From positions 15,775-79,774 of the IMG/VR virus record IMGVR_UViG_3300035698_016731: 64,000 nucleotides of DNA. The stretch is one strand, 5' to 3'. The stretch comes from a virus. Of the stretch, positions 37,260-57,407 are shown in pieces (position 1 is the stretch's first letter; each line of letters begins with the position of its first letter). The notes beneath the pieces are model-generated. The model was given only the letters and a program-made list of their open reading frames with translations, was not told where the DNA came from and ran no database searches. A program made the translations under genes and the position numbers.

Positions 37260-37577
37260 TTATATATCTATAAAAGCAACGATTTCTCTAATATTCTTAT
37301 TATAGTCCTTATAATTATTCATATGGCCAACATGAAAGTGGCAGTCACCACATAAAGCTACTAAGTTATACATATCTAAGGTTAGAGTAGGGTTTATGTG
37401 ACGAGGGATTATATGGTGTACTTCTATATCCTTCTTATATCCACAAATCCTGCACCACTTTCCAAATCTCTTTAGAAATATTCCACGAGTCTTTTGCCAA
37501 CGATAATTTAATGTAGCATTATCTGGAGCAAGAATATTAAGAACATGTCGTTCAATAGTTTTAGTAATAGGAATCAT
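37260..37577 (-). CDS. Small HNH endonuclease
   Basis: CRICG, EVHHIIP, NLVALCGDCH. Confidence 0.88.
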   Translation of the reverse strand: MIPITKTIERHVLNILAPDNATLNYRWQKTRGIFLKRFGKWCRICGYKKDIEVHHIIPRHINPTLTLDMYNLVALCGDCHFHVGHMNNYKDYNKNIREIVAFIDI

Positions 37578-38611
37578 ATCCAGTCTCCTCTTATTCCCAA
37601 TTTGTCATTAAAGTCAGGATACCAAGTCTTAGGAGTCTTGTTATTATAAAGCTCTAATCTCTCTTTAGTCCATTCTTGTGCTCCTTGTTTCTTTGCCCAT
37701 TCAGCCATAATCTCTATGCCCTTATCAAGTCCAATACTTTCCTTATAGCCTAAAAACTTTTCAGATTTCTTATAAGAACAATAAGCATACTTCACCTCAC
37801 AAGGTCTATCAGGCAGATACTCTATCTTCCATCCCTTTACTCCCATAGCCTTGATAACTTTTTCAGCTAAAACATTTACAGTTATATCAACTTTTCCTCC
37901 AATATTGATAGTCTCTCCATTAACCTTATCAGACAAACATTTAACATAACAGCCCAAGCTATCTTCAACATAACTGAAAGCTCTCTTCTGATTTCCATCT
38001 CCATAGATATAAATAGGTTCATTTCTCATAATCCTATTCATAAATATTGCAATTACATTTCTAAACTTATCTCTCAAACATTGATTCTTTCCAAAAACAT
38101 TGTGAGGTCTAATAATTGTATAATTAAAATCATGAACTTCAGAAAGTATCTCAGTATTCTGTTCCATGGCTGCTTTAGATACAGCATACACATCATCAGG
38201 CTCTCTTCTCATATCCTCTGAGAATGGAGGAACTTGACTGCCATATACAGCCATACTGCTAAACAAAACCACCTTCTTCAGCTTCTTAGTCTTGATAGCA
38301 GATATCAATACATTCATATAAGCATTAAGATTATCTTCAGTCATTTGTAGAGGAGAAAACTGTGAAGCTCCTTCTCTGGCTGTAGCAGCAAGATGGAATA
38401 TAACTTCAGGTTCAACATAACGAATATAACTTCCAACTTCTTTCTGTCTTTTAAGTTCAACTCTATTAAATTTTTGTTTATATAAATCAATATTCTCCTC
38501 ATTTCCACCACTCATATTATCAGCACCAAACACTTCGTGTCCATCATCACATAACTTGTGAGCCACATGACTTCCCATGAAGCCTGCTGAACCTGTAACA
38601 AGAATCTTCAT
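37574..38611 (-). CDS. NAD-dependent nucleotide-sugar epimerase/dehydratase
   Basis: VTGSAGFMGS, HLAA, SSMAVYG, YAVSK, RPHNVFG, YGDGNQKRAF. Confidence 0.93.
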   Translation of the reverse strand: MKILVTGSAGFMGSHVAHKLCDDGHEVFGADNMSGGNEENIDLYKQKFNRVELKRQKEVGSYIRYVEPEVIFHLAATAREGASQFSPLQMTEDNLNAYMNVLISAIKTKKLKKVVLFSSMAVYGSQVPPFSEDMRREPDDVYAVSKAAMEQNTEILSEVHDFNYTIIRPHNVFGKNQCLRDKFRNVIAIFMNRIMRNEPIYIYGDGNQKRAFSYVEDSLGCYVKCLSDKVNGETINIGGKVDITVNVLAEKVIKAMGVKGWKIEYLPDRPCEVKYAYCSYKKSEKFLGYKESIGLDKGIEIMAEWAKKQGAQEWTKERLELYNNKTPKTWYPDFNDKLGIRGDWI

Positions 38612-38619
38612 ATCGCCTC

Positions 38620-38781
38620 CTATTGGATATCTTCTTGGCGAGGCAATGAGCTTTCACCCTTGTCCTCAATAACTTTTTCGCACTCATCACAGAGTTCTTT
38701 GTCTTCATCTCCAAAAGAAGCATAGAAAATCTCACCACAAGATTTACAATTCTTTTCATATCTAACTACCATTGAACACAT
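38620..38781 (-). CDS. Small zinc-finger protein (53 aa, not in ORF track)
   Basis: GGAGGT RBS; MCSMVVRYEKNCKSCGEIF...LCDECEK... Confidence 0.65.
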   Translation of the reverse strand: MCSMVVRYEKNCKSCGEIFYASFGDEDKELCDECEKVIEDKGESSLPRQEDIQ

Positions 38782-38792
38782 TAAATACCTCC

Positions 38793-39860
38793 TTATTTTC
38801 CCTTCTTAATGATGTTAATCATTTTCTCTAATCTATGTTTTATAGTATGATTGCTGACAGTATAATCATATACCATCTTTGCTTTAAATTTCGTTTCTTC
38901 TTCATGATGTAAAGAGTGATACACTAAAGCCTTTATTTGCTCATAATCAAGGTCGAAGAGATGTGGCAACTTATGAGTATAGTAATGATTATAGTAATAT
39001 ACAGAATGTAATGGAAATAATTCTTCAAGAGTAGGAACATAGTTTGTAATAAGCAATCTATTACAAGCAGCAAGTTCAAAATTGTGGAAGCTTGTATCAT
39101 AATGTCCTGTACGATTAAAGGTTATTCTCCCCTTTTGTATAATTTTTGCATAATCCTTACCAAAGTGATTGCCCTTATAAATACGAACATCAAAATCTTT
39201 CGACAATCTATAAAGTAATTCACCTCTTTCTTGGTATTCATATTCAGACATAAACTTATCAGATTTACTGTTCAAGTCATCTGGAAACTTAGACATAAAT
39301 CTAAATCCATCTTTATCAACTCTATCGTGATAAATATACTTCTTATTAATTCCTGGCTCTCCAACAAAAGCAATATCACATTCAGGTTTAACATCCATGT
39401 CATAAATTCTATCATTTTCATAACCACAAGGAAGCCAAATTGGAGACATACCTCGAATCTGAAAGTGGCAGTTATAATACTTAAAAGAAAGAAATACAAA
39501 ATCAAAATGTCCATCAAATATTAAATCCCTAAAAGGTCTTCCACCCCTGTGAATATCAAATACCCAACAAGCACTTTTAATACCATTAGGACAATTACCT
39601 TTAAACCAGAATCCAGGTTCTAGTTGAAGTATTAAATCAAAATCTCTTCCTGCTTTACCAAGAATTTCATCATAGGTATATGTTTCTGGAAATGATTTTC
39701 GAGGTAGAAGTGGTATATCTGCAGTATCATATGGTCCACATGTGGTAACAGTATGCCCCATTTTTCTAAATTCTGCAATAGCAACTTGAGAAGCACACCA
39801 GTTTACTTTCTCTCCAGTGCATGCTAAAATTTTCATTTTTATCCTCCCCATCCTATACAT
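38793..39860 (-). CDS. CgeB-like (GT-B) glycosyltransferase
   Basis: WLPCGY, CDIAFVG, ITFNR...NFELAAC..LLITN, HTIKHRL; start probably 39836. Confidence 0.8.
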   Translation of the reverse strand: MYRMGRIKMKILACTGEKVNWCASQVAIAEFRKMGHTVTTCGPYDTADIPLLPRKSFPETYTYDEILGKAGRDFDLILQLEPGFWFKGNCPNGIKSACWVFDIHRGGRPFRDLIFDGHFDFVFLSFKYYNCHFQIRGMSPIWLPCGYENDRIYDMDVKPECDIAFVGEPGINKKYIYHDRVDKDGFRFMSKFPDDLNSKSDKFMSEYEYQERGELLYRLSKDFDVRIYKGNHFGKDYAKIIQKGRITFNRTGHYDTSFHNFELAACNRLLITNYVPTLEELFPLHSVYYYNHYYTHKLPHLFDLDYEQIKALVYHSLHHEEETKFKAKMVYDYTVSNHTIKHRLEKMINIIKKGK

Positions 39861-41089
39861 TCTCTAAGCAGAACTCTACATCTTTCTTCATACGTTTGCT
39901 TCGTGTCTCGTATCCAGTTGTAAGCAGCGTTCTGTATCCTCTCCATATCCTTTGGCTGAGATATAAGTTTCATTATTTTATTTACAATAATGTCATAATC
40001 CAAATCAAAGTTAATATTGAAAGGATGATAGAACTTGTTATATTCTACATGAGTAACACCAGGTTCACCAAGTATTTCTCTTTGACCTACGAAAATGTGG
40101 TCAGTAAATAAAAGTCTTCCACAAGACATAGCTTCTGTTGTTCTCATATTTACATCAAAATTTATAGAACTGTTTATTACAATCTTTCCCTTACAAAGCA
40201 TTTCAGAATATTGAGGAGGATTGATATTTCCTTGAAGCACTTTGAATTTCTTACCTAACAATTTAGAAAACTTCAATCGACAGAACATTTCAGCTCTATG
40301 ATGATACTCTCCAAATCTGTGGTCTTGAGGACACCCTACTTGGAACAATGGATATTCAGGCTCTTCTCTTACTACTTGTCCATATTTGGTTTTGTGAATT
40401 ACTTTAGACCATTTATAATCCATTTCAAAATCATCATGCTGTGGACACCCTTTAAGAATCTCTATCCCTGCTGCTCCCATAAAAACAATATCATACTTCT
40501 CATAATCTTGAGTTTCAGGGTATCGTTTATGGATGTCTGGGTCTGCTGCTGTAGGACTCCAAATTACTTTCTTTGGAGGATTGTAGATGACTTTCTTATC
40601 CCACATATTTATTACATGAGTTGTTTCAAATACTTCTTTATGATACAAATTGGCTATAGAAAGAAAATCCATTTTCCCCATTGCCATTGTCCACATGGTA
40701 TTTCTTGGGCAACGATGAGTATCAATTGTATGATAACAAACAGGAATATCTGGTTTCCAACCATCATCTCCAACAATAGGATATAAATTCGGTTCACTAA
40801 ATACCAACAAATCAAAATTCGTATCATAGCCTTTGCTCCGAATAATATCAAACAGCTCTGTATAAGTATAAAGTTCTGGGTGCTTTTTATAAGGAAGCTC
40901 TACATCATGAGTAAATCTTGTTCCATGCTTCCTTTGTAAATCCCAACTCAATCCATCAGTACCTTCTGGACCAATACTTACAACATTTTCCCTACCCAAA
41001 ACTTTACGGAAATTTCTCAGATAGTGCATACCAGTAGTTGGGGGACTATGTAGTACACCAAATAAGATATAAGGTTTTCCATTTTTCAT
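39839..41089 (-). CDS. CgeB-like (GT-B) glycosyltransferase
   Basis: PTAADPDIH, YDIVFMG, KIVINSS..FDVNMRTTEAMSCG, TYEERC. Confidence 0.85.
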   Translation of the reverse strand: MKNGKPYILFGVLHSPPTTGMHYLRNFRKVLGRENVVSIGPEGTDGLSWDLQRKHGTRFTHDVELPYKKHPELYTYTELFDIIRSKGYDTNFDLLVFSEPNLYPIVGDDGWKPDIPVCYHTIDTHRCPRNTMWTMAMGKMDFLSIANLYHKEVFETTHVINMWDKKVIYNPPKKVIWSPTAADPDIHKRYPETQDYEKYDIVFMGAAGIEILKGCPQHDDFEMDYKWSKVIHKTKYGQVVREEPEYPLFQVGCPQDHRFGEYHHRAEMFCRLKFSKLLGKKFKVLQGNINPPQYSEMLCKGKIVINSSINFDVNMRTTEAMSCGRLLFTDHIFVGQREILGEPGVTHVEYNKFYHPFNINFDLDYDIIVNKIMKLISQPKDMERIQNAAYNWIRDTKQTYEERCRVLLRECIGWGG

Positions 41090-42120: not shown

Positions 42121-42129
42121 TAAATTAAA

Positions 42130-42680: not shown

Positions 42681-43098
42681 CTTTCCCTTCCTTTATCTTG
42701 TTCTTTATATCAGTTGAACTTTGATAAGGATAATATGGAAGTACAATCACTTTTCCTCCCCATGTTGAAACAACTTTTCTCATATTATCAATATCTTTTT
42801 CCTTATGGCTTTCAGATTCCATAAGAATATCAGGTTTGATATTGATAATATTTTCATATGGAGAGTATTCATTTTGAGGAATTGCTACGTCAACATATCT
42901 AATAGCCTCTGCTATTTGTAGCCGTTCTTCAAAAGAAATAATTGGTTTTGGTTTCTTTTCCATACAAGCCTCATCCGTCAATACACCAACAACTAACTGC
43001 CCTCCTTCACCAGCTAATGCTTTAGAATTTTTCATCATTAATAAATGTCCTTTATGAACAACATCCAATACATAATAACTATAGACTATTTTACTCAT
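42637..43098 (-). CDS. Cytidylyltransferase (HIGH family)
   Basis: DVVHKGH, VVGVLTDE, FEER, IKPD, SSTDIK. Confidence 0.88.
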   Translation of the reverse strand: MSKIVYSYYVLDVVHKGHLLMMKNSKALAGEGGQLVVGVLTDEACMEKKPKPIISFEERLQIAEAIRYVDVAIPQNEYSPYENIINIKPDILMESESHKEKDIDNMRKVVSTWGGKVIVLPYYPYQSSTDIKNKIKEGKDEKVVYDDGSSHST

Positions 43099-43379
43099 GT
43101 TTTCACCTCATCCTCACCATAAAATCTTAATTCACTTCTCCTATTATCTTTAGGTACACCTGCTAAACTTCTATCAATTTTTATAGTTACAATAACTTTA
43201 TCAAGTTTAGGACAATCATTTTCTATATAATGGCGAAGTAAATCCATTATTTTATTGTTTAATTTTGCAGTATGTTTTATAATAATGGCTTCATTATCTA
43301 TACCACATCTTCTAAAATGACCATGTGCATAACACTTATCACAACTTTCACATATATTATTCATTTTACACCTTCCCAA
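43095..43379 (-). CDS. Cys-containing hypothetical protein
   Basis: CESCDKC...C...CP. Confidence 0.6.
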   Translation of the reverse strand: MGRCKMNNICESCDKCYAHGHFRRCGIDNEAIIIKHTAKLNNKIMDLLRHYIENDCPKLDKVIVTIKIDRSLAGVPKDNRRSELRFYGEDEVKT

Positions 43380-45089: not shown

Positions 45090-45939
45090 ATCTCTCCTTC
45101 ATCCAATTGATAGTCAATACTAATCCTTGTTTAAGATTAACTGTCTGTTCCAAACCTAATCTACTTTTCGCTGTATCATTATCAAGTTTCTTTATTCCAA
45201 CTGTCAAAGGCTCTGTTTCCTTCATCTCTACAAGAGCATTAGCTTGAGGCAAACATCCTGCTATATTTGTAAACACTTCCCAATTCTCACTTTCCTCATC
45301 TCCTGTAACATTGTAAGTATCTATACAAACTTCCTCATTTGCTGCATTAGCAAAAGCCTTAATTGCATCATCTATATACAACCATGTCCTTTTGTGATTC
45401 TTGTATAGAGTGAACTCTTCTTCCTTTAAGCATTTATAAATCAATGTAGGAATCAGTCCTCTATACTGACTATACTCTTCTTTTCCATACAAGCCACTCG
45501 GTCTTATAATTATAGTCTCAGTTCCTTTTCTTTCCATGGAGTTTCTTACCATGTGTTCTCCAACATATTTACTCATAGCATAATCATTATAGAGTCTTCC
45601 ACCTTCTCCTAATGCCTCAGAAGATGAAAAGTAAATCATTTTGAACTTTATCTTCTCTTGCAACATTATCATATTCTTAGTGCCAATAGCATTCACTTCC
45701 CAAAGATTCTTATATCTGTCTTCACCTCTGTGTCTACCATAAATAGCAGCAAGATGGTATACAACATCGAACCAATTATTATGAAACACTTTCTGTAGTT
45801 GAAAGAAGTCTGATATATCACACTCTATGTCTGCTGTATCTTTTACATCAAGACTGTATACATCATGTCCTCTGTCTTTTAATTCTTTTACTAATTCTTT
45901 TCCTACATTCCCTTCTCCGCCAGTAACTAATATTTTCAT
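45067..45939 (-). CDS. NAD-dependent nucleotide-sugar epimerase/dehydratase
   Basis: VTGGEGNVG, YHLAA, SSSE, YAMSK. Confidence 0.9.
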   Translation of the reverse strand: MKILVTGGEGNVGKELVKELKDRGHDVYSLDVKDTADIECDISDFFQLQKVFHNNWFDVVYHLAAIYGRHRGEDRYKNLWEVNAIGTKNMIMLQEKIKFKMIYFSSSEALGEGGRLYNDYAMSKYVGEHMVRNSMERKGTETIIIRPSGLYGKEEYSQYRGLIPTLIYKCLKEEEFTLYKNHKRTWLYIDDAIKAFANAANEEVCIDTYNVTGDEESENWEVFTNIAGCLPQANALVEMKETEPLTVGIKKLDNDTAKSRLGLEQTVNLKQGLVLTINWMKERYETKIKS

Positions 45940-46472
45940 TTGAATCTCCTTTTTTCTCTTAAAGGATATATAGTCATACTTTTACTAATATCAAAAGAAA
46001 GTGTTTCTTCTGGCAAACTACTATTCATTTTAAGTTTAGTATAAAAGTAATTATCTTTAGTACAAGCCTTTACTGCCTTATTTTCAGAATCAAAAATCCC
46101 TTGAACTTCCCAAATAGTATCTGGGAATACTCCTTTTTCATATTTACCAACTAGATATACATAATCTTTTTCATATTCAGGACTTGGTTCTTCGTTTTCC
46201 CAATAGCCTTGTTCTTCTAAAAACTTATCTAATTCAGTTTTAGAAAAAATCTTTCCATTAAATTGAAAATGCTGTTCCTCATCTCTTAACTTTTTCATAT
46301 ATTTTTCCTTTCTTTTAGGTATAATCTGGTCATTAGTTACACGAAGTGTTTTCATTGTTTCTGGACTAACAATGCCTCCTTGGTGTAATATAGGTTCTTT
46401 TGCCCCTAATTCATTTAAAAAGACTTCTGGATTCTTATCCATTCCATGACAAATATATTTTTTCTGTTTCAT
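45936..46472 (-). CDS. Hypothetical protein
   Basis: Coupled ORF. Confidence 0.65.
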   Translation of the reverse strand: MKQKKYICHGMDKNPEVFLNELGAKEPILHQGGIVSPETMKTLRVTNDQIIPKRKEKYMKKLRDEEQHFQFNGKIFSKTELDKFLEEQGYWENEEPSPEYEKDYVYLVGKYEKGVFPDTIWEVQGIFDSENKAVKACTKDNYFYTKLKMNSSLPEETLSFDISKSMTIYPLREKRRFK

Positions 46473-47032
46473 AATTTATCTATTGCCTCCATCCATATTT
46501 CAGCCATGGCTTTATATCCCATATTATCAAAGTGAACTTTATCTATTCTATATTTATTCAATGGAGTCATATCTACAAAAGCTACCTCATAATTATAAAG
46601 AAACTTTTTTATTATTTCATTATACTGGTCAACATACCATTGAGAACCAATAGGATAGTCAAATAAACCTGTTCCCTTTATACTAGGCAATGTAGCCAGA
46701 ATAACTCTTTTCTTAAACAATATACACAACTGAATAAGCTCTTTAAGATTCTTTCTGAATATAGGAACTGGCACCCTTTCCTTTGCATCATTAGTACCTA
46801 TCATCAGAAGAACCAAGGCACTCTCAGGATAGCTCTTCAATGTTTTATATGCTCGATTAAGAAGGTCTGAACTGGTTTGTCGAACTATCCCTTCATTTAC
46901 TACAACAAAAAACTTTTTCTTATGCTTCTCATTTAACATTTGTTGTAGTTCAAGAGGATAACCTCTTCTATACTCATCTCTTGCTCCTGATGTTAATGAA
47001 TCTCCTAATCCAATAATTAAATCCCAAATCAT
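46469..47032 (-). CDS. SGNH/GDSL esterase or O-acyltransferase
   Basis: GDSLT, NEG, GTND, DKVH. Confidence 0.9.
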   Translation of the reverse strand: MIWDLIIGLGDSLTSGARDEYRRGYPLELQQMLNEKHKKKFFVVVNEGIVRQTSSDLLNRAYKTLKSYPESALVLLMIGTNDAKERVPVPIFRKNLKELIQLCILFKKRVILATLPSIKGTGLFDYPIGSQWYVDQYNEIIKKFLYNYEVAFVDMTPLNKYRIDKVHFDNMGYKAMAEIWMEAIDKL

Positions 47033-49014
47033 ATTTTTACTCCTTTAACTACCACAAATTTCATATCAAACCAAACATCTCCATACGGATGACCACTTCT
47101 AACATCTGCTTCTTCACAAAAGTTTACAACTCTCTTATATTCAAGAGATGAATTGTGATAACATCTTTTAAAAGCTCTTTCTTCATATATATCAAACAAT
47201 TTTAAACTCTGTAAAGATACATGAGGAACTACAATTTCCTTAATCTCAGGAGTTGCAAATCCTATTGCTTGTAAAAGTTGGAGTATTTTTCCTTTAGAAT
47301 AAACATGCTGTTTTAAAGTATAATCAGCACCTGAAACACTTTCCCAATCTTCAAACAAGCTATCTGAAAAAGGTATCTCATTACAGAAGATAAAACTTCC
47401 TCCTTCTTTCAATACTCTATGTACTTCTTTTAAAGAGTCTAATACAGTTTCTTTAAATTCTAAATAATCAATTACTTCTCTCATGATTACAGCATCAAAT
47501 TCTTCATTAGGAAATTTTATCCTAGTTACATCCCCAGTTCTAATGTCAATCTCTTTATCTTTAACTTGAAGTAACATAGATGGAGATACATCAATACCAT
47601 AAAACTTCTTATCTGTTAATTGTCCTTTTAAATATTTACTTACTATTCCAGTCCCACAACCTGCATCTAATATTCTTTTTCCTTTTTTTGCAAAATCAGA
47701 AATAGTTTGTAATACATTTTTATCTGAAACAGGGCTCATCTTGTCATAAACTTCAGCTCTCTTTGCCCAATCATCTATCCCTACTTCATCAAAAACACCT
47801 TTAACATATTCTAAATTTTTATAATTCAAATATCTAAACTGAAGCTCTTTTTTACTTATAATTCCATCAACAGGAAACTTCTTTAACTCTTTATATATCT
47901 CTTTAACTATGTCATCTCTCTCTTTCGACAAGTTAATTTTCTCTTCTGGGTCATGGAATATATTATAAAGCATAGTAGTTGTACCTCTGTCAACTTCTGA
48001 CAGAAGTATTAACTTCCATCCATCTTGTCTAATAAGAGTAAAGATTCTTGTTGTCCCTGCCCTATCAATATAAACATCACGGAAAATAGAAGCATCATAT
48101 TCTTTTATTGATTCATCCAAATAATTTCGCCAGCTCTTTCCATCAATAGGAGTCTCCAATGGTTTGTCCAAAAAATCTAACAATGTAGGCATAATATCTA
48201 TGTATGGTGTAACCATTTCAATTCGTTTTGGTTTCAATTTTGGGTGATACAATATACAAGGAACATTAACAGATTGATTAAATCTCACTTCAGTGTGCTT
48301 AACAGTAGGTTCAATTATGTTCCCATCCTCATTCAGTGGGTCTATACCTGTTATATATTCACCATGGTCAGCTGTCAACAGTACAATTGTATTGTTTAAA
48401 AGATTAAGCTCTTCTAATTTATTATACAACAGCTCTACAGTTTCACCCACTGCATTAATATCATCTAAATAATGATTCCAAACTTTCTCGTGTTCTCCCT
48501 TTCTTAAAAAGTTTACCCATGGTTCTCCATCTATATGTCTATTTCTAGTTGCCCAATGATGGGTGAAAAGAAAAAAGTCATTCTTTTGATTCTCTTCAAT
48601 CCACGTAAGAATACTTGACATATCTAAAGGTCTATGATAAAGAGCTGATATTCCTTCATTTAATTTCAAATTAAACTGTTCATATTCTTCAACAGTTAAA
48701 GATTCTCCCATAGGAGGTTCTGTTGTAAATAAAAGCATGTTATGAGAAGGTTTCAAATAATCTAATAACATTTTCTTTTCACCAAGATTCCAAGGCTTCA
48801 ATCCAATCTTATGGTTAAATGGATGAAGTCCTGTAAACATACTTCCTAAAGCTCTATATGTATCAGGAACAGAAGTCATCATATGGTCAAAGATAATTCC
48901 TTTATTATAGAACTTCTCATATCCTTTTGATACTCCTTTTTCATTATAGCATTTAAGAGCATCTTTTCTCAATCCATCAAATGTCAATATTATAAGATTC
49001 ATTTTTCTCTCCAC
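47029..49014 (-). CDS. Alkaline-phosphatase-superfamily (sulfatase-fold) domain fused to a SAM methyltransferase
   Basis: DGLRKD, T...SMFTG, TADHGE, DIMPTLL, DPEEKINL; then ILDAGCGTG...HRVLKEGG. Confidence 0.85.
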   Translation of the reverse strand: MERKMNLIILTFDGLRKDALKCYNEKGVSKGYEKFYNKGIIFDHMMTSVPDTYRALGSMFTGLHPFNHKIGLKPWNLGEKKMLLDYLKPSHNMLLFTTEPPMGESLTVEEYEQFNLKLNEGISALYHRPLDMSSILTWIEENQKNDFFLFTHHWATRNRHIDGEPWVNFLRKGEHEKVWNHYLDDINAVGETVELLYNKLEELNLLNNTIVLLTADHGEYITGIDPLNEDGNIIEPTVKHTEVRFNQSVNVPCILYHPKLKPKRIEMVTPYIDIMPTLLDFLDKPLETPIDGKSWRNYLDESIKEYDASIFRDVYIDRAGTTRIFTLIRQDGWKLILLSEVDRGTTTMLYNIFHDPEEKINLSKERDDIVKEIYKELKKFPVDGIISKKELQFRYLNYKNLEYVKGVFDEVGIDDWAKRAEVYDKMSPVSDKNVLQTISDFAKKGKRILDAGCGTGIVSKYLKGQLTDKKFYGIDVSPSMLLQVKDKEIDIRTGDVTRIKFPNEEFDAVIMREVIDYLEFKETVLDSLKEVHRVLKEGGSFIFCNEIPFSDSLFEDWESVSGADYTLKQHVYSKGKILQLLQAIGFATPEIKEIVVPHVSLQSLKLFDIYEERAFKRCYHNSSLEYKRVVNFCEEADVRSGHPYGDVWFDMKFVVVKGVKI

Positions 49015-49799
49015 AAGTCTAATATCATCTTATCTTCAAGTAAAAAATTAGCTTCAGTACAAAGATAACCACAAACAGCACACTTAGCTATATTTTTTGA
49101 CTTAGGAAAATTTGTAAAATCATCTAATGTTACATCAGACCTACAAATAGGACAAGCAAGCAAACTTTTTACCACTTCAGCTCTTTCTTTAGTGCCACAT
49201 TCTGGAAGTTTAATTACAGGTTCTGCTTTAAGAGGATAGTCTCCATTTTTCCTTATGATTATATCAATATCAAAATTATTAAGCCTAGTATCAAAAGTAA
49301 GTAATTCTCCTCCACCTTTCTGACAAACTATATCTGCTATTTCTTTAAATTCTGGTTTAGTATGTTCACTAGGTGCTCTAGCTCCAAGTTCTGTAACCCT
49401 TGCTTCATGAACATGAAACTCAAGAATAGGAACAATAATTACTATCAACCCTCCTGGTTTCAGTATTCGCAACCATTCTCTTAATGCATATTCAGCATTA
49501 AGCATATGTTCCAATGAATGACTACTGAAAACAAGTCCTACACTATTACTTTTAATAGGCACTCTTTCTCCCATAGCAAAGAAATCTAAATTCCATCTTT
49601 CAGAATGTGTTCCTGAACTCATTACAGTTCTTCTGCAACTAACATTTAAACTATTTTGCTCCCATTCTCCTTGTGGACCACCAACATTAATATTGATACC
49701 ACGAACAGGATAAATTGCAGTTACTATGCGTTTCTGTATCTCCTTTTGAATAGCAGTACAAGTATGCCGATTAACATTATTAAATCTCGGAATTGTCAT
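48999..49799 (-). CDS. Methyltransferase-like protein with Trm112-like zinc finger
   Basis: SSHSLEH...EWLRILKPGG; LACPIC...CAVC. Confidence 0.8.
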   Translation of the reverse strand: MTIPRFNNVNRHTCTAIQKEIQKRIVTAIYPVRGININVGGPQGEWEQNSLNVSCRRTVMSSGTHSERWNLDFFAMGERVPIKSNSVGLVFSSHSLEHMLNAEYALREWLRILKPGGLIVIIVPILEFHVHEARVTELGARAPSEHTKPEFKEIADIVCQKGGGELLTFDTRLNNFDIDIIIRKNGDYPLKAEPVIKLPECGTKERAEVVKSLLACPICRSDVTLDDFTNFPKSKNIAKCAVCGYLCTEANFLLEDKMILDLWREK

Positions 49800-49816
49800 A
49801 ATAAAACCTCCTAATA

Positions 49817-50137
49817 TTATTCAATAGAGTTTAGTGGACTACCTTCAGGAAACTTTACCTTTCCTGGTTTTCTACGCATAAGTGGGCAGTTTTCAGGCTT
49901 CCCTAAAGCAACAGGGCAAGTAACATGCTGGTCTTCTATATAAGCACACAATGGTGCCCCTGATGATTTGGCAACAGTTCTTTGAGAACATTCATAAAGA
50001 CCATTCCATTCTTCTGTTTGTGCTTTTTTAATTCTAACATTATCTTCATATAGATAATAAGCACCACAACCTTTTCCATCTAATCTTATATAACATTTTT
50101 TGCCATTTTTTAAAAAGGTATTACATTGGTCTCTCAT
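49817..50137 (-). CDS. Cys-rich hypothetical protein
   Basis: 7 Cys; coupled ORF. Confidence 0.6.
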   Translation of the reverse strand: MRDQCNTFLKNGKKCYIRLDGKGCGAYYLYEDNVRIKKAQTEEWNGLYECSQRTVAKSSGAPLCAYIEDQHVTCPVALGKPENCPLMRRKPGKVKFPEGSPLNSIE

Positions 50138-51189
50138 AGCTCTCTCCTTAATATATTTACTATTCTTTCACTTGCTTTTCCATCCCACATGGAAGGAATA
50201 GTTCTGTGAATGGTTCTATTTATATAGAATCTAACATCACTTTCTAGTTGAGATATAGTAGTCAAATGATTAGTTCCAGATGATATTGTTATATTCCGTT
50301 CTGTATTAGGTCTCAAAGTCAAACAAGGCACACCTAAATATGTAGTCTCTTCCTGTACTCCACCACTATCTGTTATTACTAAACTTGCATTTCTTTGTGC
50401 CCCAATAAAATCTAAATATCCAAGTGGCTTTTCAAAATAAATATCTGACTCGAATGGTTTAAACTCTTCAAATTTCTTTTTTGTTCTTGGGTGAAGGGGG
50501 AAAATAACATGGTAAAATTTAGTTATATCATTTAAGACATTCAATATCCTTTTTAATCTTACTGGATTATCAACATTATAAGGTCTATGCAAAGTTACAA
50601 GGATATATCTACCACCCCATTTATTCATTTCTCTAACTTTAGGAAGCACTTTTATAAGAGAATCAATCATTGTATTTCCAACAAAAGAAATACCTTTTGT
50701 AATTCCTTCTTTTTTTAAATTGCTTTCAGCTTCTCTACAATGGGTAAAAAGAAAATCAGAAATAGAATCAGTAAGCCTTCTATTTATCTCTTCAGGCATA
50801 CTATCATCATAGCTTCTCAATCCAGCTTCTACATGAGCAATCTGTATACCTTTCTTCTTAGCAACTAATGCACAAGCTAAAGTACTATTAACATCTCCAA
50901 CCACTATTACTAAATCAGGATTAAATTTATCTATAAATAATTCAAATCTCTCCATAACTTTTGCAGTTTGATAAGCATGAGTTGCACTTCCTACTCCCAA
51001 AGTTGCATATACATCAGGCAAACCCAGCTCTTTAAAAAAATCATCACCCATATTTTTATCATAATGCTGACCTGTGTGAATAAAAACATATTCAAATTCA
51101 TCTGGATACTTTTTTAGTTCCGACATAATTGGAGCAATTTTCATATAGTTAGGTCTTGCTCCTACAACTAGCATTATCTTCTTTTTCAT
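50134..51189 (-). CDS. wecB: UDP-N-acetylglucosamine 2-epimerase (non-hydrolysing)
   Basis: GARPNYMK, HTGQHYD, VGDVNST, HVEAGLRS, PEEINR, TDSGGVQEE. Confidence 0.96.
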   Translation of the reverse strand: MKKKIMLVVGARPNYMKIAPIMSELKKYPDEFEYVFIHTGQHYDKNMGDDFFKELGLPDVYATLGVGSATHAYQTAKVMERFELFIDKFNPDLVIVVGDVNSTLACALVAKKKGIQIAHVEAGLRSYDDSMPEEINRRLTDSISDFLFTHCREAESNLKKEGITKGISFVGNTMIDSLIKVLPKVREMNKWGGRYILVTLHRPYNVDNPVRLKRILNVLNDITKFYHVIFPLHPRTKKKFEEFKPFESDIYFEKPLGYLDFIGAQRNASLVITDSGGVQEETTYLGVPCLTLRPNTERNITISSGTNHLTTISQLESDVRFYINRTIHRTIPSMWDGKASERIVNILRREL

Positions 51190-51335: not shown

Positions 51336-51337
51336 TA

Positions 51338-52273
51338 TCACTTTGTTTCTAGCTCCTCTCTTTCTTTCAAATTACTATCTAAGTATTTAATTTGTATGTA
51401 TTTTTCTTTCTTTTTCTTTTCTTCATAATATTTGTCCATTACATTTCTTTCATCTCCACCATAGTATTCTATAAACTTTTTACGACTTTCTAACAATAAT
51501 AAATCACATCTCAACTCAGGATTGTTAGTGAAAGTATTTCCTAAACAATGATACAAATAAGGAGTCCTTAACATAAAATTTCTTTTTCCCATCATCATCA
51601 TTTCATAAGCGAAAGTAAAATCTTCATACAAGCTCTTTAACCATTCGGGAAATCCTATACTACCATCCTTGTACTTTATCTTCTCCCATTCGCTTTTCCT
51701 AAACATAAAACAACACCCAACAGGACAAGCACATCTTCCAGGAGGTCTATCACATACTTTTGAAGAAAGAGCTATGTCAACTTCTTCTGTAGGAATTTGA
51801 ATTTTTCTACCATGAGGGCTTCTAGGCTTTAACCAACCATTTAATCGGAAAAAACCTTCCATCTCTTCTCTCTTACAAAAAAATGTAGGAAAACCTACCA
51901 TTCCTGCTTCTGGATTATTTTGCATAAAGTAAAGACCAGATTTAAGCCAGTTCTTAGTTACTAATATATCATCATTCAACATAACTACTATATCTGATTG
52001 TGCAGCTTCAACTATGTCATTCCAGCTTCTTGTTATGCCTTCATTGTAAGCATGCTGAATAATGGTGAAATTATTTTGCCCTTCATATTTCTTATAAATC
52101 TCATAAGCATTATCTCTGTGTTCTTTGAATCGACTTCCATCATCACAGAAAAGAACTTCAAAATCAATATCCTTACTAGACATCTCCATTATAGACCTTA
52201 TGCAATGTTCCACCCTATACAAACCATTATATGAAATGACCCCTATACTAATATCCATTTTATATGTCCTCAA
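51338..52273 (-). CDS. GT2 glycosyltransferase
   Basis: CDDGS, NEGITRSWN, MLNDDILV, YEDF. Confidence 0.9.
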   Translation of the reverse strand: MRTYKMDISIGVISYNGLYRVEHCIRSIMEMSSKDIDFEVLFCDDGSRFKEHRDNAYEIYKKYEGQNNFTIIQHAYNEGITRSWNDIVEAAQSDIVVMLNDDILVTKNWLKSGLYFMQNNPEAGMVGFPTFFCKREEMEGFFRLNGWLKPRSPHGRKIQIPTEEVDIALSSKVCDRPPGRCACPVGCCFMFRKSEWEKIKYKDGSIGFPEWLKSLYEDFTFAYEMMMMGKRNFMLRTPYLYHCLGNTFTNNPELRCDLLLLESRKKFIEYYGGDERNVMDKYYEEKKKKEKYIQIKYLDSNLKEREELETK

Positions 52274-53288
52274 GTTTTATTCGGTTTTCTTTTAAAAGTT
52301 CAAAATATCTCTTTTCACCTGCACTAGCTTTAACATCATTCCAAGTTTCACCATATTCTTTTACCACCCAATCTGTTCCCTCTTCTTCTGAAAAATCTAA
52401 CCATTTTATAAGTTTAGGGGGGATAACTCTCATGAATCTATAATGAGGGTTATTAACATCAGTTTGAAGTATATCTCCTTTCCACTTTTTTATGTAATTA
52501 GTTCTACTTTCAGACATTGTTTCAGCAGCTTTAAGTTCAGGATTATTAGCAAAAGTATGTCCCCATATATGATAAATATGAGGATAAGGCAATGAATAAC
52601 TAGGCATACCTCTTGCTGCACACATAGTTCCCATATCTATTTCCTCATAAAAACTTTTAAACTTGAGTTCATCAAATCCACCAAAAGCATTAAGAGTCGA
52701 ATATTTTACAGCAAAACACATACCTGCTGGAGCCATTACTCTACCTGGTGAACCATCAGTTTTTTCCTGATAATTATGAGCAATACATTCTTGAAGTTTT
52801 CTTGTATTTGGATTGATAGTCTGAATCAGTACAACATCTTGTTCTTCTATTATGCTTTTAACCATTGTGGGTCTTATGTAATAAGCAGGCAAGGAACAAG
52901 CTCCACAATGAGGATTATGTTTTAAAAAAAATATCAAAGAATTAAGCCAATTCTTAGTTACCAAAATATCATTATTCAACATAACAACATATTTACTTTT
53001 TATATGTTTCCAAATATGATTCCAAGTAGAAGCTATTCCTTGATTGTGCATATGCTCTATGAGAAATATATTCTTATGCCAAGCTTGATGCTGTTCCACT
53101 ATATATCTTAAACTGAGTTTGAATTCTTCTTTACTTCCATCATCACATATAACGATAGCAACATTTTCTAAATCATAATTGGTATAATATCGAATAGTCT
53201 TTAATAATCCATCAACACATTGAAAATCATTATAGGTACTGATTCCTATTACTACTTCATAACTTATTTTTGCGTTATTTTCAATCAT
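52260..53288 (-). CDS. GT2 glycosyltransferase (paralog of neighbour)
   Basis: CDDGS, NQGIASTWN, MLNNDILV, GGFDE, FYEEID. Confidence 0.9.
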   Translation of the reverse strand: MIENNAKISYEVVIGISTYNDFQCVDGLLKTIRYYTNYDLENVAIVICDDGSKEEFKLSLRYIVEQHQAWHKNIFLIEHMHNQGIASTWNHIWKHIKSKYVVMLNNDILVTKNWLNSLIFFLKHNPHCGACSLPAYYIRPTMVKSIIEEQDVVLIQTINPNTRKLQECIAHNYQEKTDGSPGRVMAPAGMCFAVKYSTLNAFGGFDELKFKSFYEEIDMGTMCAARGMPSYSLPYPHIYHIWGHTFANNPELKAAETMSESRTNYIKKWKGDILQTDVNNPHYRFMRVIPPKLIKWLDFSEEEGTDWVVKEYGETWNDVKASAGEKRYFELLKENRIKLEDI

Positions 53289-53297
53289 ATTTTCTCC

Positions 53298-56200
53298 TTA
53301 TAGCAAATTCAAATATAGTTCATTGTGAAGTTGAGATATTTTTTCAGGAGGATAACTTCTTACATACTCCATAGACTTTTTAACTAGCTTATCTGACTCT
53401 TTTTTATCTCCAATAAGATTGTTAGATATTTCAGCTAATGCTCTTGAGTCTAGCATAGGAAACTGCTTAGTTATAGGGAAGATGTCCTCGAACATAGGAC
53501 TGTGGCTGACAACACAAGGTCTGCCACATGACAACCCAGTACGAGCTGCAGCTGAGGCACTATAATACCCTTTAATCGTATAAGCATAAGCTATTATATT
53601 AGCACACTGTAATTTCTCCATTACTTTATCCATAGTCAAATATTGGTCAAATATCTTAACTTTACTTTTAATCTTCAAATTCTTAATGAGGTATCTTATA
53701 TGTTGGTAACATTCATGTTTAACATCTCCAGCTCCTATAATCCAAATCTCTGTATTATTTCCCATATAAGCTAAAGATTTAACAAGACAATCATATCCTT
53801 TATGCTGTTGGAAAAAACCATGGCTTGCAACAATCTTCTTATCCAGAGGTATGTTCAATTTCTTTCGAGCTGTTTCTATATCTACATTATCATATTGCAA
53901 ACAGGGAAGAGGAATACAACCAATACTCCTATTCCCTGTTGCTTCTCTTGCTTTCACTGCTGCTGCAGAATTACAAACCAATTCTTTATCCACTAAAGCA
54001 TTTACTGTTTTGTGAAAGCCAACATCTATATAATAAGTATGATATGTTATTACCACTCTTATTCCCATCTCTTTTAAAGTTTTTATAAAGCGAATAAAAT
54101 TATTGGTATCTTGATAGAAAGAAAATTCGTGATGAATATGAATTACATTAGTTCCATACTTTTTTATGTCATCTAGTAATCGTTGATAGTCCTTAAAGTC
54201 TCTTGACCAAACTCGCCTAACTAAATCAGTATTATCCTTTCCATATATCTTTCCATCAGTTGGAGCATATATTTTTATGTCTTCATAATCCTTTAGTCCA
54301 TCTATGTAATATTTTGTATTCTCAGCTATACCACATTTTTCACTCCAACTTACAACAACACCCAATCTCAATTTTTCTTTCTTCAGTACTGGCTTCTTAT
54401 CAAAAATCCTTTTAGTCCTGTCCATTAAAGCAGGAATAGAGAAATTCTCAAGAGCATAGTCTCTTGCTGGTTGGAGGAGTTTATGGTATACTGCATTCTT
54501 GTAATCGAGAACCTCTTTAGCAAGACTGTTAAAATCATCAAGTTTAAAATAATTAACATGCTCCTTATAATTCTCTTTTAATATAGGCAAATCACTACAA
54601 AAAACAGGAATCTTCACTAACATTGCTTCAAAAGGAGTCATTCCAAAACCTTCAAATTTACTAGGAACAATCATCATCTTTGAAGCTTTTATAAGTTTAA
54701 ATTTATCTTCATCATTAATATTCTCAAAAGTACTTACTTCCAAATTGGAAAATCTATACTTAGACTTAATATGACTAGCTCTATATCCCACTAAAGCAAC
54801 TCTACATTTCTCGAATATCTTGGACAAGCTTTCTAAAAGAAACAAATGGTTTTTATAATCTTTAACCATACTAATATAAATAACATCATAATCCTTTTTA
54901 GCCATCTTTCCCAGCAGAACAATCTTATCTCCAACAATATTATTACAAGCAGGTTCAATAGGAATAATAACTTTATCTTCAAAAAGCTTATCCCATTCTT
55001 TCATCTTCTTAACTCCCAACTCAGACAAAGTTACAACTATATCACTCTCAAGGAGACTTTGTTTACAAGCTGTCCAAAATCCTTCCTTACTGTCATCACC
55101 TTTCCGATACTCCCTAATATAGTTAGGAGTCTCATATATAAAATTAACTACTTTTCCAAATCCAGTATTTTTCTTATACTCCACAGCAGTTATACAAGTA
55201 TTATAAGGCTCACCAACTATGTAATCAAATTTTTGGTCATATCGGGAAATGTCCATTGATGGGTCAATTATTATATTGAATTTACCTTTAAATTCTTTGT
55301 AGTTAAAATCATCAAAGAAGACTGGCATCTTATTAGTCAAAACCCAAACAGTAAATCCTCTCTCAGCTAAAGCCTTCATAGTCATCCAACCATGATATCT
55401 TCCACCACTATATACAACTTCAGTTTCTGTTATATATAGAACATTAGTTGTCCTTTTATCAAGAACAATGTTGTATCGGTCTTGATAGTATTCTCCTTTG
55501 TAATTAGATACAACTTTAACTTCTAAATCAGGAATTTCTTTTTTTACATTAATCACAGCTTGTGGTTTATTTGTTTGTAGATTGACAATTCCAAATCTCT
55601 GGACAGCTTCTATAACATCATTTACTTTTATAGACCTCATGCAAAGAGGAACAATCTTCCTATTAGGACACCCAGACAACTTTAAAATAAAACAAGGAGA
55701 ACTAGGACACCCTTGAACTGATACTGGAAAATGATTCTTATAATAACTAACTACAGACTCAGGCTTAGTATTCCCCCACAAACCTATAGTAGTTTTCTCC
55801 AAAAGTCCAGCTATGTGAACCATTCCAGTATCAGTAGTCACCACAGCTTTAGCTTTCTTTACCAGACTTACAACTCTATCCAAATATAGTCCAACAGCTG
55901 AATATACATTCCTATCTTTCCTATCTATATAGAAATCATACTCACTTCCTGTAATAACTACATTTATATCACTAAATTGAGTAAGTTCATAAGCTAATCG
56001 TTCCCATTTTTCATTTTGCCATTTCCGAAGAGGACTAGAACCTCCTGTATGAAGAATGATAAAGTCTTTTATTCCCCTAACTCCTAACCAATCATCAATT
56101 TCTTTATCAAACTGAGTTTTAATTTTCGGTAATTGAATTGGCAAACCTTTAAATTTTACACCTTTGTGGCGAGTAACAAGCATATCTCTATACAAATCAT

Positions 56201-56702
56201 AATAGTCAGTACTTGTTCTTTTGGAATTATTCTCTATAGTGTCTATAAAATCCAGTATAGCATCATAATTATATAAAACTTCAAACTTGCGACTGTCTTG
56301 ATAAGGAACAAGACCATCTATGGAAGGAAAAAGTCGAAACAGAGGAAATTGCCAGTTCTGACAAGCCACACTTACTCTAACACTAGGCTCTACACTTTTC
56401 AGCAACTCAACAATACTAACTGTTCCAATAATATCTCCCAAACCACCATTCCTTTTCAGAAGTATTCTTTTGTCTTTTAAATCTTCAGGAAGAGTGGTTC
56501 GGGATTCTTTGTGATTGGGAATCACAGAAGGAGACTTAAAAATTTCAGGTAAATCATCCCAACTTTTAAAGCACATAAAATACCCAAGCTGATTAAGATG
56601 AGTTATTACATCATCATCATTAATCTCTATAGGTACATTCTTATAATAATCCAAACCTTTATAGGTATAAGATGGATACCTTGTAAGAACTAAAACAGAC
56701 AT
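53298..56702 (-). CDS. Multidomain glycosyltransferase: short N-terminal module + GT9 (heptosyltransferase-like) + GT4 + GT4
   Basis: RNGGLGD...RKW...TDTGMVHIAG (GT9); SGGRYH...PSKFEGFGMTPFEA (GT4); CGIAENT...HGFFQQHKG (GT4). Confidence 0.9.
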   Translation of the reverse strand: MSVLVLTRYPSYTYKGLDYYKNVPIEINDDDVITHLNQLGYFMCFKSWDDLPEIFKSPSVIPNHKESRTTLPEDLKDKRILLKRNGGLGDIIGTVSIVELLKSVEPSVRVSVACQNWQFPLFRLFPSIDGLVPYQDSRKFEVLYNYDAILDFIDTIENNSKRTSTDYYDLYRDMLVTRHKGVKFKGLPIQLPKIKTQFDKEIDDWLGVRGIKDFIILHTGGSSPLRKWQNEKWERLAYELTQFSDINVVITGSEYDFYIDRKDRNVYSAVGLYLDRVVSLVKKAKAVVTTDTGMVHIAGLLEKTTIGLWGNTKPESVVSYYKNHFPVSVQGCPSSPCFILKLSGCPNRKIVPLCMRSIKVNDVIEAVQRFGIVNLQTNKPQAVINVKKEIPDLEVKVVSNYKGEYYQDRYNIVLDKRTTNVLYITETEVVYSGGRYHGWMTMKALAERGFTVWVLTNKMPVFFDDFNYKEFKGKFNIIIDPSMDISRYDQKFDYIVGEPYNTCITAVEYKKNTGFGKVVNFIYETPNYIREYRKGDDSKEGFWTACKQSLLESDIVVTLSELGVKKMKEWDKLFEDKVIIPIEPACNNIVGDKIVLLGKMAKKDYDVIYISMVKDYKNHLFLLESLSKIFEKCRVALVGYRASHIKSKYRFSNLEVSTFENINDEDKFKLIKASKMMIVPSKFEGFGMTPFEAMLVKIPVFCSDLPILKENYKEHVNYFKLDDFNSLAKEVLDYKNAVYHKLLQPARDYALENFSIPALMDRTKRIFDKKPVLKKEKLRLGVVVSWSEKCGIAENTKYYIDGLKDYEDIKIYAPTDGKIYGKDNTDLVRRVWSRDFKDYQRLLDDIKKYGTNVIHIHHEFSFYQDTNNFIRFIKTLKEMGIRVVITYHTYYIDVGFHKTVNALVDKELVCNSAAAVKAREATGNRSIGCIPLPCLQYDNVDIETARKKLNIPLDKKIVASHGFFQQHKGYDCLVKSLAYMGNNTEIWIIGAGDVKHECYQHIRYLIKNLKIKSKVKIFDQYLTMDKVMEKLQCANIIAYAYTIKGYYSASAAARTGLSCGRPCVVSHSPMFEDIFPITKQFPMLDSRALAEISNNLIGDKKESDKLVKKSMEYVRSYPPEKISQLHNELYLNLL

Positions 56703-56705
56703 ACA

Positions 56706-57407
56706 TCACTTTCTCCCAACTTTTTTCTTACGTTTTACACGCTTAGGAGTAGTTGGAGCAGGTTTCCTTATCAGTTTCATTTCTTCTTCTGGCTCTTCTT
56801 TTGCTACATCAAGAGTTTCTTCTTTTGCTTCTTCTACTGGACTAGCATCAGGAGGAGAGACTTTCTTTCCTGATGGAGCCGAAAGTCCTTCTTTGTTGAT
56901 AATCATAGTACAAGCTTCAGGCATAGCACACTTTAGAATTCTACTTAGATTCAAAGCATTATTAGCTAAACGGATTGCATCCTTTCCCTCAACACCAAGA
57001 ATCTCAAAAGCCTGACGGGCAGAATCAAATCCTACTCCATCAAAGTCTATATCAGTTTTCCCTAATTCTTCTTCCTCATGTACTCCATCATCATCAAGGA
57101 TAAGAGTCTTTTTAGGTTCAGCCTTTTTCTTTTTAAGTTCCTCAGCTTGCATACGCATTTGTTTATATTTTTCTTCTTTTTTGGCAGGAGTATCTGCTTT
57201 GTCAGCAGCATTTTCTTCAGCTTTCTGGATTTCTTCAGGAATCTCTTTGCCTGGGTCAGCTCTATAAAAGAAATAGCCAAGACCAAGTAAGTATCTTTCT
57301 ACATCAGGGGGAAGGTTATAAACAGGTTTGCCAGTTACAAATTCAATTTGGTTAAACTTATCCTTATAAGTATAACTATCATGTTTACTACTTAATTCAA
57401 GTCCCAT
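56706..57407 (-). CDS. Post-capsid protein with YqbF-like N-terminus and charged low-complexity tail (putative capsid-associated)
   Basis: SYTYK...F..G.P...YL..LGYF; position after the capsid/HNH genes. Confidence 0.55.
   Translation of the reverse strand: MGLELSSKHDSYTYKDKFNQIEFVTGKPVYNLPPDVERYLLGLGYFFYRADPGKEIPEEIQKAEENAADKADTPAKKEEKYKQMRMQAEELKKKKAEPKKTLILDDDGVHEEEELGKTDIDFDGVGFDSARQAFEILGVEGKDAIRLANNALNLSRILKCAMPEACTMIINKEGLSAPSGKKVSPPDASPVEEAKEETLDVAKEEPEEEMKLIRKPAPTTPKRVKRKKKVGRK

Follow-up and report, generated by a model that had tools for sequence, protein, structure and literature searches.

We analysed a 64,000-nucleotide window (bases 15775-79774) of the 79.8-kb linear IMG/VR virus record IMGVR_UViG_3300035698_016731, estimated to be 71% complete, and found that its head-morphogenesis module accommodates a 19.8-kb glycan locus: 20 minus-strand open reading frames (ORFs), running from 57407 down to 37574, between the genes for the major capsid protein (MCP) and the head-tail adaptor (Table 1). 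On balance, we favour the reading that the locus specifies a cytoplasmic, phage-encoded glycosylation system of the head-morphogenesis module, the product of which ends up on a virion protein. The original prediction, made by a model from the letters and their ORFs, described about 20 tightly coupled genes at this site; the ORF listing gives exactly 20, with junctions that are mostly overlaps of 4-37 nt or gaps of less than 20 nt (the two widest measure 148 and 181 nt). The locus takes up about 18-25% of a genome of ~80-110 kb, or about a quarter of the recovered genome, and the original description of it as complex for a phage is justified when tailed phages of similar size are the yardstick.

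As transcribed, the head genes are ordered portal (60550-62208), protease/scaffold (59060-60529), MCP, HNH endonuclease, the 20 ORFs, a second HNH endonuclease and adaptor, followed by Neck1, an Ig-domain tail protein and the tape measure (flanks assigned by PHROGs). Within the locus, Pfam and NCBIfam agree with the enzyme classes originally assigned: eight glycosyltransferase (GT) domains (GT9, two GT4, three GT2 and two CgeB-like), WecB, two short-chain dehydrogenase/reductase (SDR) epimerases, four methyltransferase domains, a cytidylyltransferase, an alkaline-phosphatase-fold enzyme (the predicted sulfatase-fold enzyme, see below) and an SGNH enzyme. The predicted lack of export machinery also held: Wzx/Wzy, a polyprenyl-phosphate (initiating) transferase such as an undecaprenyl-phosphate transferase, a flippase, a polymerase and an ABC exporter all have no Pfam family match among the 20 locus proteins, and, as judged by a Kyte-Doolittle scan, no GT contains a membrane segment. 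The initiating transferase, flippase/polymerase, exporter and anchored GT that distinguish Wzx/Wzy-dependent, ABC-dependent and Gtr-type O-antigen systems are, accordingly, missing. What the locus does have is the arrangement in which phage GTs, with or without a methyltransferase, are co-located with virion structural genes, since all eight GT and all four methyltransferase domains lie between MCP and adaptor.

A comparison of gene order among relatives revealed that a GT enzyme is fixed after the capsid gene throughout the MCP clade and is met again next to MCPs of a second family. All viral contigs (referred to by L numbers) with an MCP at least 34% identical to that of the window and with downstream DNA – the window itself, L002, L003, L004, L134, L135, L005, L138 and L139, of which L134, L135, L138 and L139 were added by a capsid-centred search – carry a GT9-GT4(-GT4) enzyme immediately past the MCP gene, whether or not the small post-capsid gene is present. 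In L002-L005, whose MCPs are from 88% down to 36% identical to the MCP of the window, the order is MCP, post-capsid protein (not in L005), fusion enzyme, GT2, a variable stretch that includes a methyltransferase of the 266-amino-acid type, an SDR of the 345-amino-acid type, adaptor, and neck and tail genes. In the 65-kb contig L138, a 1001-amino-acid GT9+GT4 protein is the sole enzyme between MCP (plus a 113-amino-acid ORF) and adaptor. Five relatives at 22-27% MCP identity (L140, L141, L142, Vibrio phage VH2_2019 and Streptomyces phage Enygma) have no GT from the capsid to the neck genes. As the enzyme follows the capsid gene in all contigs above the 34% threshold and in none of these distant relatives, it is an ancestral, fixed feature of the clade.

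At this one site the size of the locus ranges from a single gene of about 3 kb (L138) through ~8 kb to the 19.8 kb of the window, a series along which, as the compared sequences indicate, the locus has grown. Both edges of the window locus are HNH endonuclease genes. The possibility that the pair forms the borders of a mobile island was considered and ruled out: relatives L002-L005 carry the cassette without either of the two HNH genes, which are therefore separate homing-endonuclease insertions, presumably later ones. HNH homologues that are 46-48% identical sit inside the cassettes of L009 and L159.

In the window, the enzyme at the fixed position is a three-GT fusion (Table 1), with Pfam matches to PF01075 (49.1 bits, cut-off 22), PF00534 (83 bits in two stretches) and PF13439. 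Its first catalytic domain is a genuine GT9: the AlphaFold2 (AF2) model of the domain (predicted local distance difference test score, pLDDT, of 75) has 3TOV, 1PSW, 2GT1 and 4RAP as its top Foldseek matches at E values of 5e-12 to 2e-9, in the order 3TOV, WaaF, WaaC, then TibC. The sequence profile of the domain matches WaaC, WaaF and 3TOV and not TibC, which ranks 11-12 by fold. An assignment as a TibC-type protein heptosyltransferase was not supported by sequence, TibC being only one among several GT9 fold matches. After the GT9 domain comes a conserved four-Cys cluster, in a Cys-rich stretch that is modelled at low confidence; it loosely recalls the iron-binding Cys motif of TibC. Full-length homologues of the enzyme are rare – only six among 5.8 billion proteins, at 29-44% identity – and were found only on viral-type contigs, the examined loci of which carry capsid genes. 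A tblastn search of 50,697 phage records with the core enzyme yielded one weak match, in an uncultured 595-kb phage, and none in cultured phages or mycobacteriophages.

The core enzyme and the 233-amino-acid post-capsid protein, orthologues of which are found in L002, L003, L004, L134 and L135 and absent in L005, open with the same N-terminal module of ~50 residues. A profile made without the L003 and L004 post-capsid proteins recovers both at E ~1e-11. The module is present on all full-length enzyme homologues; the profile matches the L139 enzyme at E 0.004, and the L138 enzyme has a similar pattern by eye only. It is rare, with 14 matches in 1.84 billion representative proteins, all of them N-terminal on fusion enzymes or short proteins. 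Its AF2 model (beta-beta-beta-alpha-beta, pLDDT 91) is matched best, across the entire PDB and with either of two independent aligners, by the N-terminal domain of Bacillus subtilis YqbF (skin prophage, 2HJQ, PF14553): Foldseek gives a probability of 0.87 and an E value of 0.28, and VIA gives Z 6.2 with a root-mean-square deviation of 2.4 A over 48 residues (next Z 5.1). The likeness is structural only, with no match to PF14553 or 2HJQ by sequence. The YqbF gene is located just after an XkdG-type capsid gene, with the domain at the N-terminus of the protein, as in the locus. While the match places the module in head modules, it explains nothing by itself; YqbF has no known function.

By eye, a module-like pattern can also be discerned in the post-capsid proteins of relatives that lack a GT, at the C-terminus in Enygma (gp50), L141 and L142 and at the N-terminus in phage VH2. 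In our reading, the gene that comes after XkdG-type capsid genes has long carried this domain, and the GT acquired a copy of it. Since the domain is common to the enzyme and the post-capsid protein, the two would share a binding partner, probably a head component. In L002 (11410-11865) the module is fused to a homologue of the 106-amino-acid ORF of the window locus, which lacks it here; the module therefore moves between locus genes.

The post-capsid position is fixed in a second capsid lineage as well. Homologues of the core enzyme's two GT4 domains follow MCPs of another family, phrog_3990, in at least 10 distinct contigs (L006, which comes from a 175-kb contig, L008, L009, L018, L019, L151, L154, L156, L157 and L159). 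The gene order in this lineage (lineage B) is MCP, a protein of ~130-160 amino acids, a fusion that is either GT4-GT4 or GT4-GT4-GT2, a GT2, a methyltransferase or both, a variable stretch and, last, an SDR. This terminal SDR is 41-55% identical to the 345-amino-acid SDR of the window (51% in L019); within the first clade the corresponding values are 65% for L003/L004 and 50% for L005. A search for the shared YqbF-like domain in the lineage-B enzymes found none. In L018 (7287-10505) and L019 (7245-10454) the post-capsid enzyme is a GT4-GT4-GT2 triple fusion of ~1070 amino acids, and multi-GT fusions therefore arose more than once at this position. In another related cassette, L045, a GT (6408-8978) is interrupted by a LAGLIDADG intein (PF14528, PF14890, Hint_2), for which it is an unusual host gene.

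Among the head proteins, the best candidate acceptor would be the Ser/Thr/Tyr-rich C-terminal tail of the MCP, although, as judged from the protein sequences, we consider it a weak candidate. The MCP, which shares 26% identity with the MCPs annotated in Streptomyces and Vibrio phages, ends in ...SCDASTAYTG, and the tail consensus of the cassette clade is ...R-[SG]-x-S-[AC]-D-[AST]-[ST]-[ST]-x-Y-x-G, where the Tyr does not vary across 12 aligned sequences. Ser, Thr and Tyr together occupy on average 4.3 of the last 10 MCP residues in the cassette clade vs 0.8 in the five relatives without a GT, a comparison of one clade with its outgroup; the MCPs of these relatives end a few residues past the last conserved strand. 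A second possible glycan site is a Thr/Ser-rich patch at MCP residues ~79-89 (E-G-G-T-E-T-T-T-S-S-P), in which E79, T86 and P89 are invariant across the clade.

According to the mechanism that we propose, the GT9-GT4-GT4 enzyme would be co-produced with the capsid protein from a late operon and brought to a head component by the YqbF-like N-domain that it shares with the post-capsid protein, and there it would start and extend a glycan, drawing on nucleotide sugars that the host or the phage supplies. Elongation or branching of the chain would fall to the GT2 and Glyco_trans_1_2 enzymes, and WecB and the two SDRs would provide UDP-N-acetylmannosamine (UDP-ManNAc) and an epimerised or deoxy sugar. 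The four methyltransferase domains and the SGNH enzyme would tailor the glycan, and the cytidylyltransferase and the Thr-type alkaline-phosphatase-fold enzyme would add or trim a phospho-substituent; judged from these domain classes, a methylated, acylated and phospho-substituted glycan is plausible. The most specific form of the proposal is tentative: a capsid-docked three-domain GT, which took its YqbF-like domain from the post-capsid gene, may O-glycosylate the MCP tail, with the tailoring genes being swapped and with 20 genes making, in this phage, a methylated, ManNAc-containing, phospho-substituted heteroglycan.

The cytoplasmic nature of the pathway, part of the original prediction, is in good agreement with the inventory, the soluble enzymes and the position in the head operon; the virion target we infer from the position and co-orientation of the genes and from the lack of both export machinery and a DNA-hydroxymethylation route. 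Several observations weigh against such a target. The operon position is circumstantial, the record is only ~71% complete, and the 6.4 kb of DNA examined upstream of the related cassette L045 contain no capsid gene. In the second lineage, a Ser-Tyr-x-x-Pro motif at the MCP C-terminus is kept by cassette-less relatives too, and because of this the tail argument is limited to one lineage. The basic C-terminus of the post-capsid protein could mean DNA binding. The locus includes the gene for a small membrane protein, DUF2061. Finally, the GT9 domain appears, by profile and by model, to be nearer to WaaC/WaaF than to the protein heptosyltransferase TibC, and GT9 enzymes are best known from the synthesis of the lipopolysaccharide (LPS) core.

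The resemblance to the LPS heptosyltransferases WaaC and WaaF, the DUF2061 protein and the location of the L045 cassette away from a capsid gene would all suit remodelling of the host envelope, i.e. a locus that alters or builds a host surface glycan (LPS core, capsule or teichoic-acid-like), for example for superinfection block or release, via host lipid carriers and exporters. Moreover, WecB makes UDP-ManNAc, a typical envelope-glycan precursor, and the nucleotidyltransferase resembles RfaE domain II and TagD. We nevertheless regard this explanation as rather unlikely: all GTs are soluble, and no gene for an initiating transferase, flippase, polymerase, ligase or exporter accompanies them; in two capsid families the core enzyme keeps a fixed place next to the capsid gene, which it may occupy alone; one of its domains is also found on a head-module protein; its full-length homologues were found only on viral-type contigs, the examined loci of which carry capsid genes; and a late-operon position suits superinfection exclusion poorly.

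Unlikely, too, is a non-virion acceptor – the post-capsid/scaffold protein (transiently), a host protein or a soluble metabolite – that would leave the mature particle without a glycan. The shared N-domain could just as well serve to bind the enzyme to the post-capsid protein, and the modification enzymes of mycobacteriophage Corndog were not found in its purified virions (PMC4351075), so the enzymes need not be structural. However, a structural product accords better with the size of the locus and with its clade-wide fixation beside the capsid gene, a metabolite would lack any gene for its regulation or export, and the tailoring content, varying as it does among relatives, resembles the diversification of surface glycans.

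Very unlikely, finally, is hypermodification of DNA, in which the GTs would add sugars to hydroxymethylated bases in phage DNA, either ahead of packaging or in the course of it. Phage GT clusters that descend from enzymes of LPS and teichoic-acid synthesis do attach mono- to tri-saccharides, including heptose, to 5-hydroxymethylcytosine; some of them include a cytidylyltransferase (one with both this enzyme and heptose), and some lie close to structural genes (bioRxiv 10.1101/2023.12.21.572611). The C-terminus of the post-capsid protein is, in addition, very basic. The DNA-modifying clusters are, however, defined by adjacency to C5-MT/5mYOX or ThyS, and the 79.8-kb, ~71%-complete record contains no C5-methyltransferase (PF00145), TET/JBP (PF12851) or ThyA (PF00303) at E <= 1, only ThyX; the locus, which is far larger, lies on the structural arm opposite the replication arm, its eight GT domains and four methyltransferases far exceed the needs of the reported DNA glycans, and its methyltransferases match generic class-I S-adenosylmethionine (SAM) families, not DNA methylase families.

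Returning to the proposed virion glycosylation system, the enzymes other than the core fusion can be assigned with varying precision (Table 1). WecB clears the TIGR00236 equivalog cut-off (210.15), and for NeuC it scores 79 vs 236, so it is not of the hydrolysing type; its product would, by homology, be UDP-ManNAc. The 661-amino-acid fusion has its sulfatase-fold domain in the N-terminal half and its methyltransferase in the C-terminal half. While the predicted fold is confirmed, the sulfatase motif is missing. Thr51 aligns at the nucleophile position (local P-D-T-Y-R-A-L), and the DHG metal site is present. A formylglycine sulfatase (S1) was rejected: there is no C/S-x-P-x-R motif, Thr51 replaces Cys/Ser, and the sulfatase equivalogs score far below their cut-offs. 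Given the Thr nucleophile and the lack of the motif, the protein is therefore a soluble, methyltransferase-fused phospho-ester enzyme of the alkaline-phosphatase superfamily.

The 153-amino-acid nucleotidyltransferase has RfaE domain II (75.8 bits) and TagD (61.7 bits) as its best NCBIfam matches, both below cut-off. Its best PDB match is 5X3D (62 bits; deposited molecule name phosphoenolpyruvate phosphomutase), which we take to be the cytidylyltransferase domain of Fom1, and the protein would activate a small phosph(on)ate or a sugar-1-phosphate. General family scans of the scanned phage proteins gave no match to GmhA or to a kinase or phosphatase family of the ADP-heptose route. The DUF2061 protein is the only predicted membrane protein of the locus and consists of two tandem repeats with two hydrophobic helices each. 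Its gene is missing from the smaller cassettes of relatives, and a literature search for the function of DUF2061 gave nothing.

Table 1. Genes of the glycan locus and its flanks, in order of transcription (feature; position in the window; strand; characteristics)
Major capsid protein, 333 aa (amino acids), XkdG/HK97-type	58049..59050	-	phrog_1623, 185 bits; homologues carry PF05065
HNH homing-endonuclease gene	57453..57986	-	matches 22 HNH PHROGs; between MCP gene and locus; no counterpart in L002-L005
Post-capsid protein, 233 aa	56706..57407	-	N-terminal YqbF-like domain, charged linker, basic C-terminus; no Pfam/PHROG match
Core fusion enzyme, 1134 aa	53298..56702	-	YqbF-like N-domain (residues 1-54), GT9, two GT4; no membrane segment
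GT2, 342 aa, conserved core	52260..53288	-	PF00535, 57 bits; orthologues in L002-L005 and L139
GT2, 311 aa, paralogue of the adjoining GT2	51338..52273	-	PF00535, 62 bits; 29% identical to its neighbour
WecB, non-hydrolysing UDP-GlcNAc (UDP-N-acetylglucosamine) 2-epimerase	50134..51189	-	PF02350, 318 bits; TIGR00236, 295.7 bits
106-aa protein	49817..50137	-	no family match; homologue in L002 carries an N-terminal YqbF-like domain
Class-I SAM methyltransferase, 266 aa, conserved core	48999..49799	-	PF08241; homologues in nearly all related cassettes
Alkaline-phosphatase-superfamily ('sulfatase-fold') and class-I methyltransferase fusion, 661 aa, soluble	47029..49014	-	PF00884, PF01663, PF08241
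SGNH/GDSL hydrolase-fold enzyme, 187 aa, O-acyl esterase or transferase class	46469..47032	-	PF13472, 67.7 bits
178-aa protein	45936..46472	-	no Pfam, PHROG or NCBIfam match; Atlas: only viral hypothetical proteins, scores <0.8
NAD-dependent SDR sugar-nucleotide epimerase/reductase, 290 aa	45067..45939	-	PF01370, 129 bits; RmlD_sub_bind; NCBIfam equivalogs all below cut-offs
GT2, 314 aa	44145..45089	-	PF00535, 35.6 bits
Class-I SAM methyltransferase, 271 aa	43366..44181	-	PF13649, PF08242, PF08241
94-aa protein	43095..43379	-	no family match
Small nucleotidyltransferase (cytidylyltransferase-like), 153 aa	42637..43098	-	PF01467; TagD / RfaE-domain-II / Fom1-CyTase class
DUF2061 small predicted membrane protein, 147 aa	42130..42573	-	PF09834; ~4 hydrophobic helices by hydropathy scan
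Class-I SAM methyltransferase, 344 aa	41086..42120	-	PF13489; homologues in L005, L009, L019 and L045
Glyco_trans_1_2 ('CgeB-like') GT, 416 aa	39839..41089	-	PF13524, 36.9 bits; no PDB sequence match
Glyco_trans_1_2 ('CgeB-like') GT, 355 aa	38793..39860	-	PF13524, 41.6 bits
NAD-dependent SDR epimerase/dehydratase, 345 aa, conserved last cassette gene	37574..38611	-	PF01370, 155.7 bits
Second HNH endonuclease gene, 105 aa	37260..37577	-	HNH PHROGs; between locus and adaptor; not in L003-L005
Head-tail adaptor, first gene past the locus	36524..37198	-	phrog_442; orthologues directly after the cassette in L003, L004, L005 and L138

The genome to which the locus belongs is divided into two arms. 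The minus strand, which carries every gene from ~17.5 kb to the end of the window, is the virion arm; the plus-strand arm is devoted to replication and recombination, with genes for a DnaB-like helicase, a Toprim primase, a dUTPase/NT5C protein, ThyX, RtcB, an intein-bearing DnaE-type polymerase with a uracil-DNA-glycosylase domain, a gp32-like protein, RecA and Mre11/Rad50-like proteins. The GC content stays within 30-38%, and the glycan locus shows no compositional break. A scan for promoters and terminators gave nothing beyond chance level, and late expression of the glycan locus is what we infer. When compared with GenBank phages by blastn, the head region had no match. The polymerase (window 72-4643, plus strand) is a DnaE-type DNA polymerase III alpha of 1523 amino acids in a single reading frame, with the intein (PF14890) at residues ~817-1021 and the C-terminal uracil-DNA-glycosylase-superfamily domain at residues 1378-1508. 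An unusually long ThyX (337 amino acids) and an RtcB RNA ligase (376 bits) are encoded at L014 6275-7288 and 10189-11370, respectively (contig bases outside the window); RtcB often counteracts host defences that cleave tRNA.

The bacterial-type DnaE, DnaB, DnaG-like primase and RecA point to a bacterial host. An attempt to assign the host via WecB failed, as its relatives at 45-55% identity are scattered across many phyla. One related 18-kb viral contig, Ga0164310_10000697 (L004/L016; proteins P0003 and P0028), is deposited at NCBI within a metagenome-assembled genome labelled 'Thermoproteota archaeon', a placement that is probably a binning error because relatives encode bacterial-type DnaE, DnaB and RecA.

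To our knowledge, the only phages with demonstrated virion glycosylation by enzymes of their own are a few mycobacteriophages, which use two to four genes. This system (Che8, Corndog) appears to be the nearest known one, the locus being alike by position and content. Corndog gp35-gp38 encode an O-methyltransferase, two GTs and a GlcNAc-transferase between the genes for portal and protease, and the authors suspected capsid modification (PMC4351075). The differences are several. The Corndog cassette precedes the protease gene, whereas the locus follows the MCP gene. With 20 genes and eight GT domains, the locus is five to ten times larger than the 2-4 genes of the mycobacteriophages, and, unlike these, it has its own nucleotide-sugar and phospho-substituent enzymes and a GT9-GT4-GT4 fusion core with a YqbF-like N-domain, a core enzyme for which tblastn detects no homology to mycobacteriophage proteins. 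The host would be the bacterium of a low-GC virus, not an actinobacterium. Mycobacteriophage glycans are reported at the C-termini of capsid and tail-tube subunits (PMC12619734, citing Freeman et al. 2023), and the MCPs of the locus clade, too, have a Ser/Thr/Tyr-rich C-terminal tail.

With WaaC and WaaF (LPS core) and TibC/AAH (heptosylation of autotransporter proteins) the locus has the GT9 fold in common, but here the GT9 has a YqbF-like domain and a pair of GT4 domains as fusion partners. In giant viruses, virus-encoded, cytoplasmic, host-independent systems combine nucleotide-sugar synthesis, several GTs and tailoring enzymes and decorate the particle, as we propose for the locus. Chloroviruses and Mimivirus are, however, eukaryotic giant viruses with unrelated capsids, while the locus belongs to a tailed phage. 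PBCV-1 capsid glycans and the fibril glycan clusters of Mimivirus are among the examples treated in reviews of giant-virus glycosylation (PMC9614988, PMC5408694). Distinctive of the present locus are its size, the graded series among its relatives and the YqbF-like domain.

If the locus does glycosylate the virion, the sugar-coating of phage particles would extend well beyond actinobacteriophages and could reach the complexity seen in giant viruses, at the cost of a fifth to a quarter of the genome; should the enzyme indeed dock on the capsid, self-glycosylation in this phage would surpass in elaborateness all that is known from tailed phages and would parallel the giant viruses. The size series at one site, from L138 through the cassettes of intermediate size to the window, is a natural experiment on the growth of a glycan pathway. 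The shared YqbF-like domain offers a testable idea for how a soluble enzyme finds the assembling capsid, and would provide a first clue to the function of a domain repeatedly encoded after capsid genes. Glycans of this kind would bear on phage stability, on receptor and mucus binding and on immune recognition in therapy, as well as on the reading of GTs in viromes, which are usually filed as host-modifying 'auxiliary' genes.

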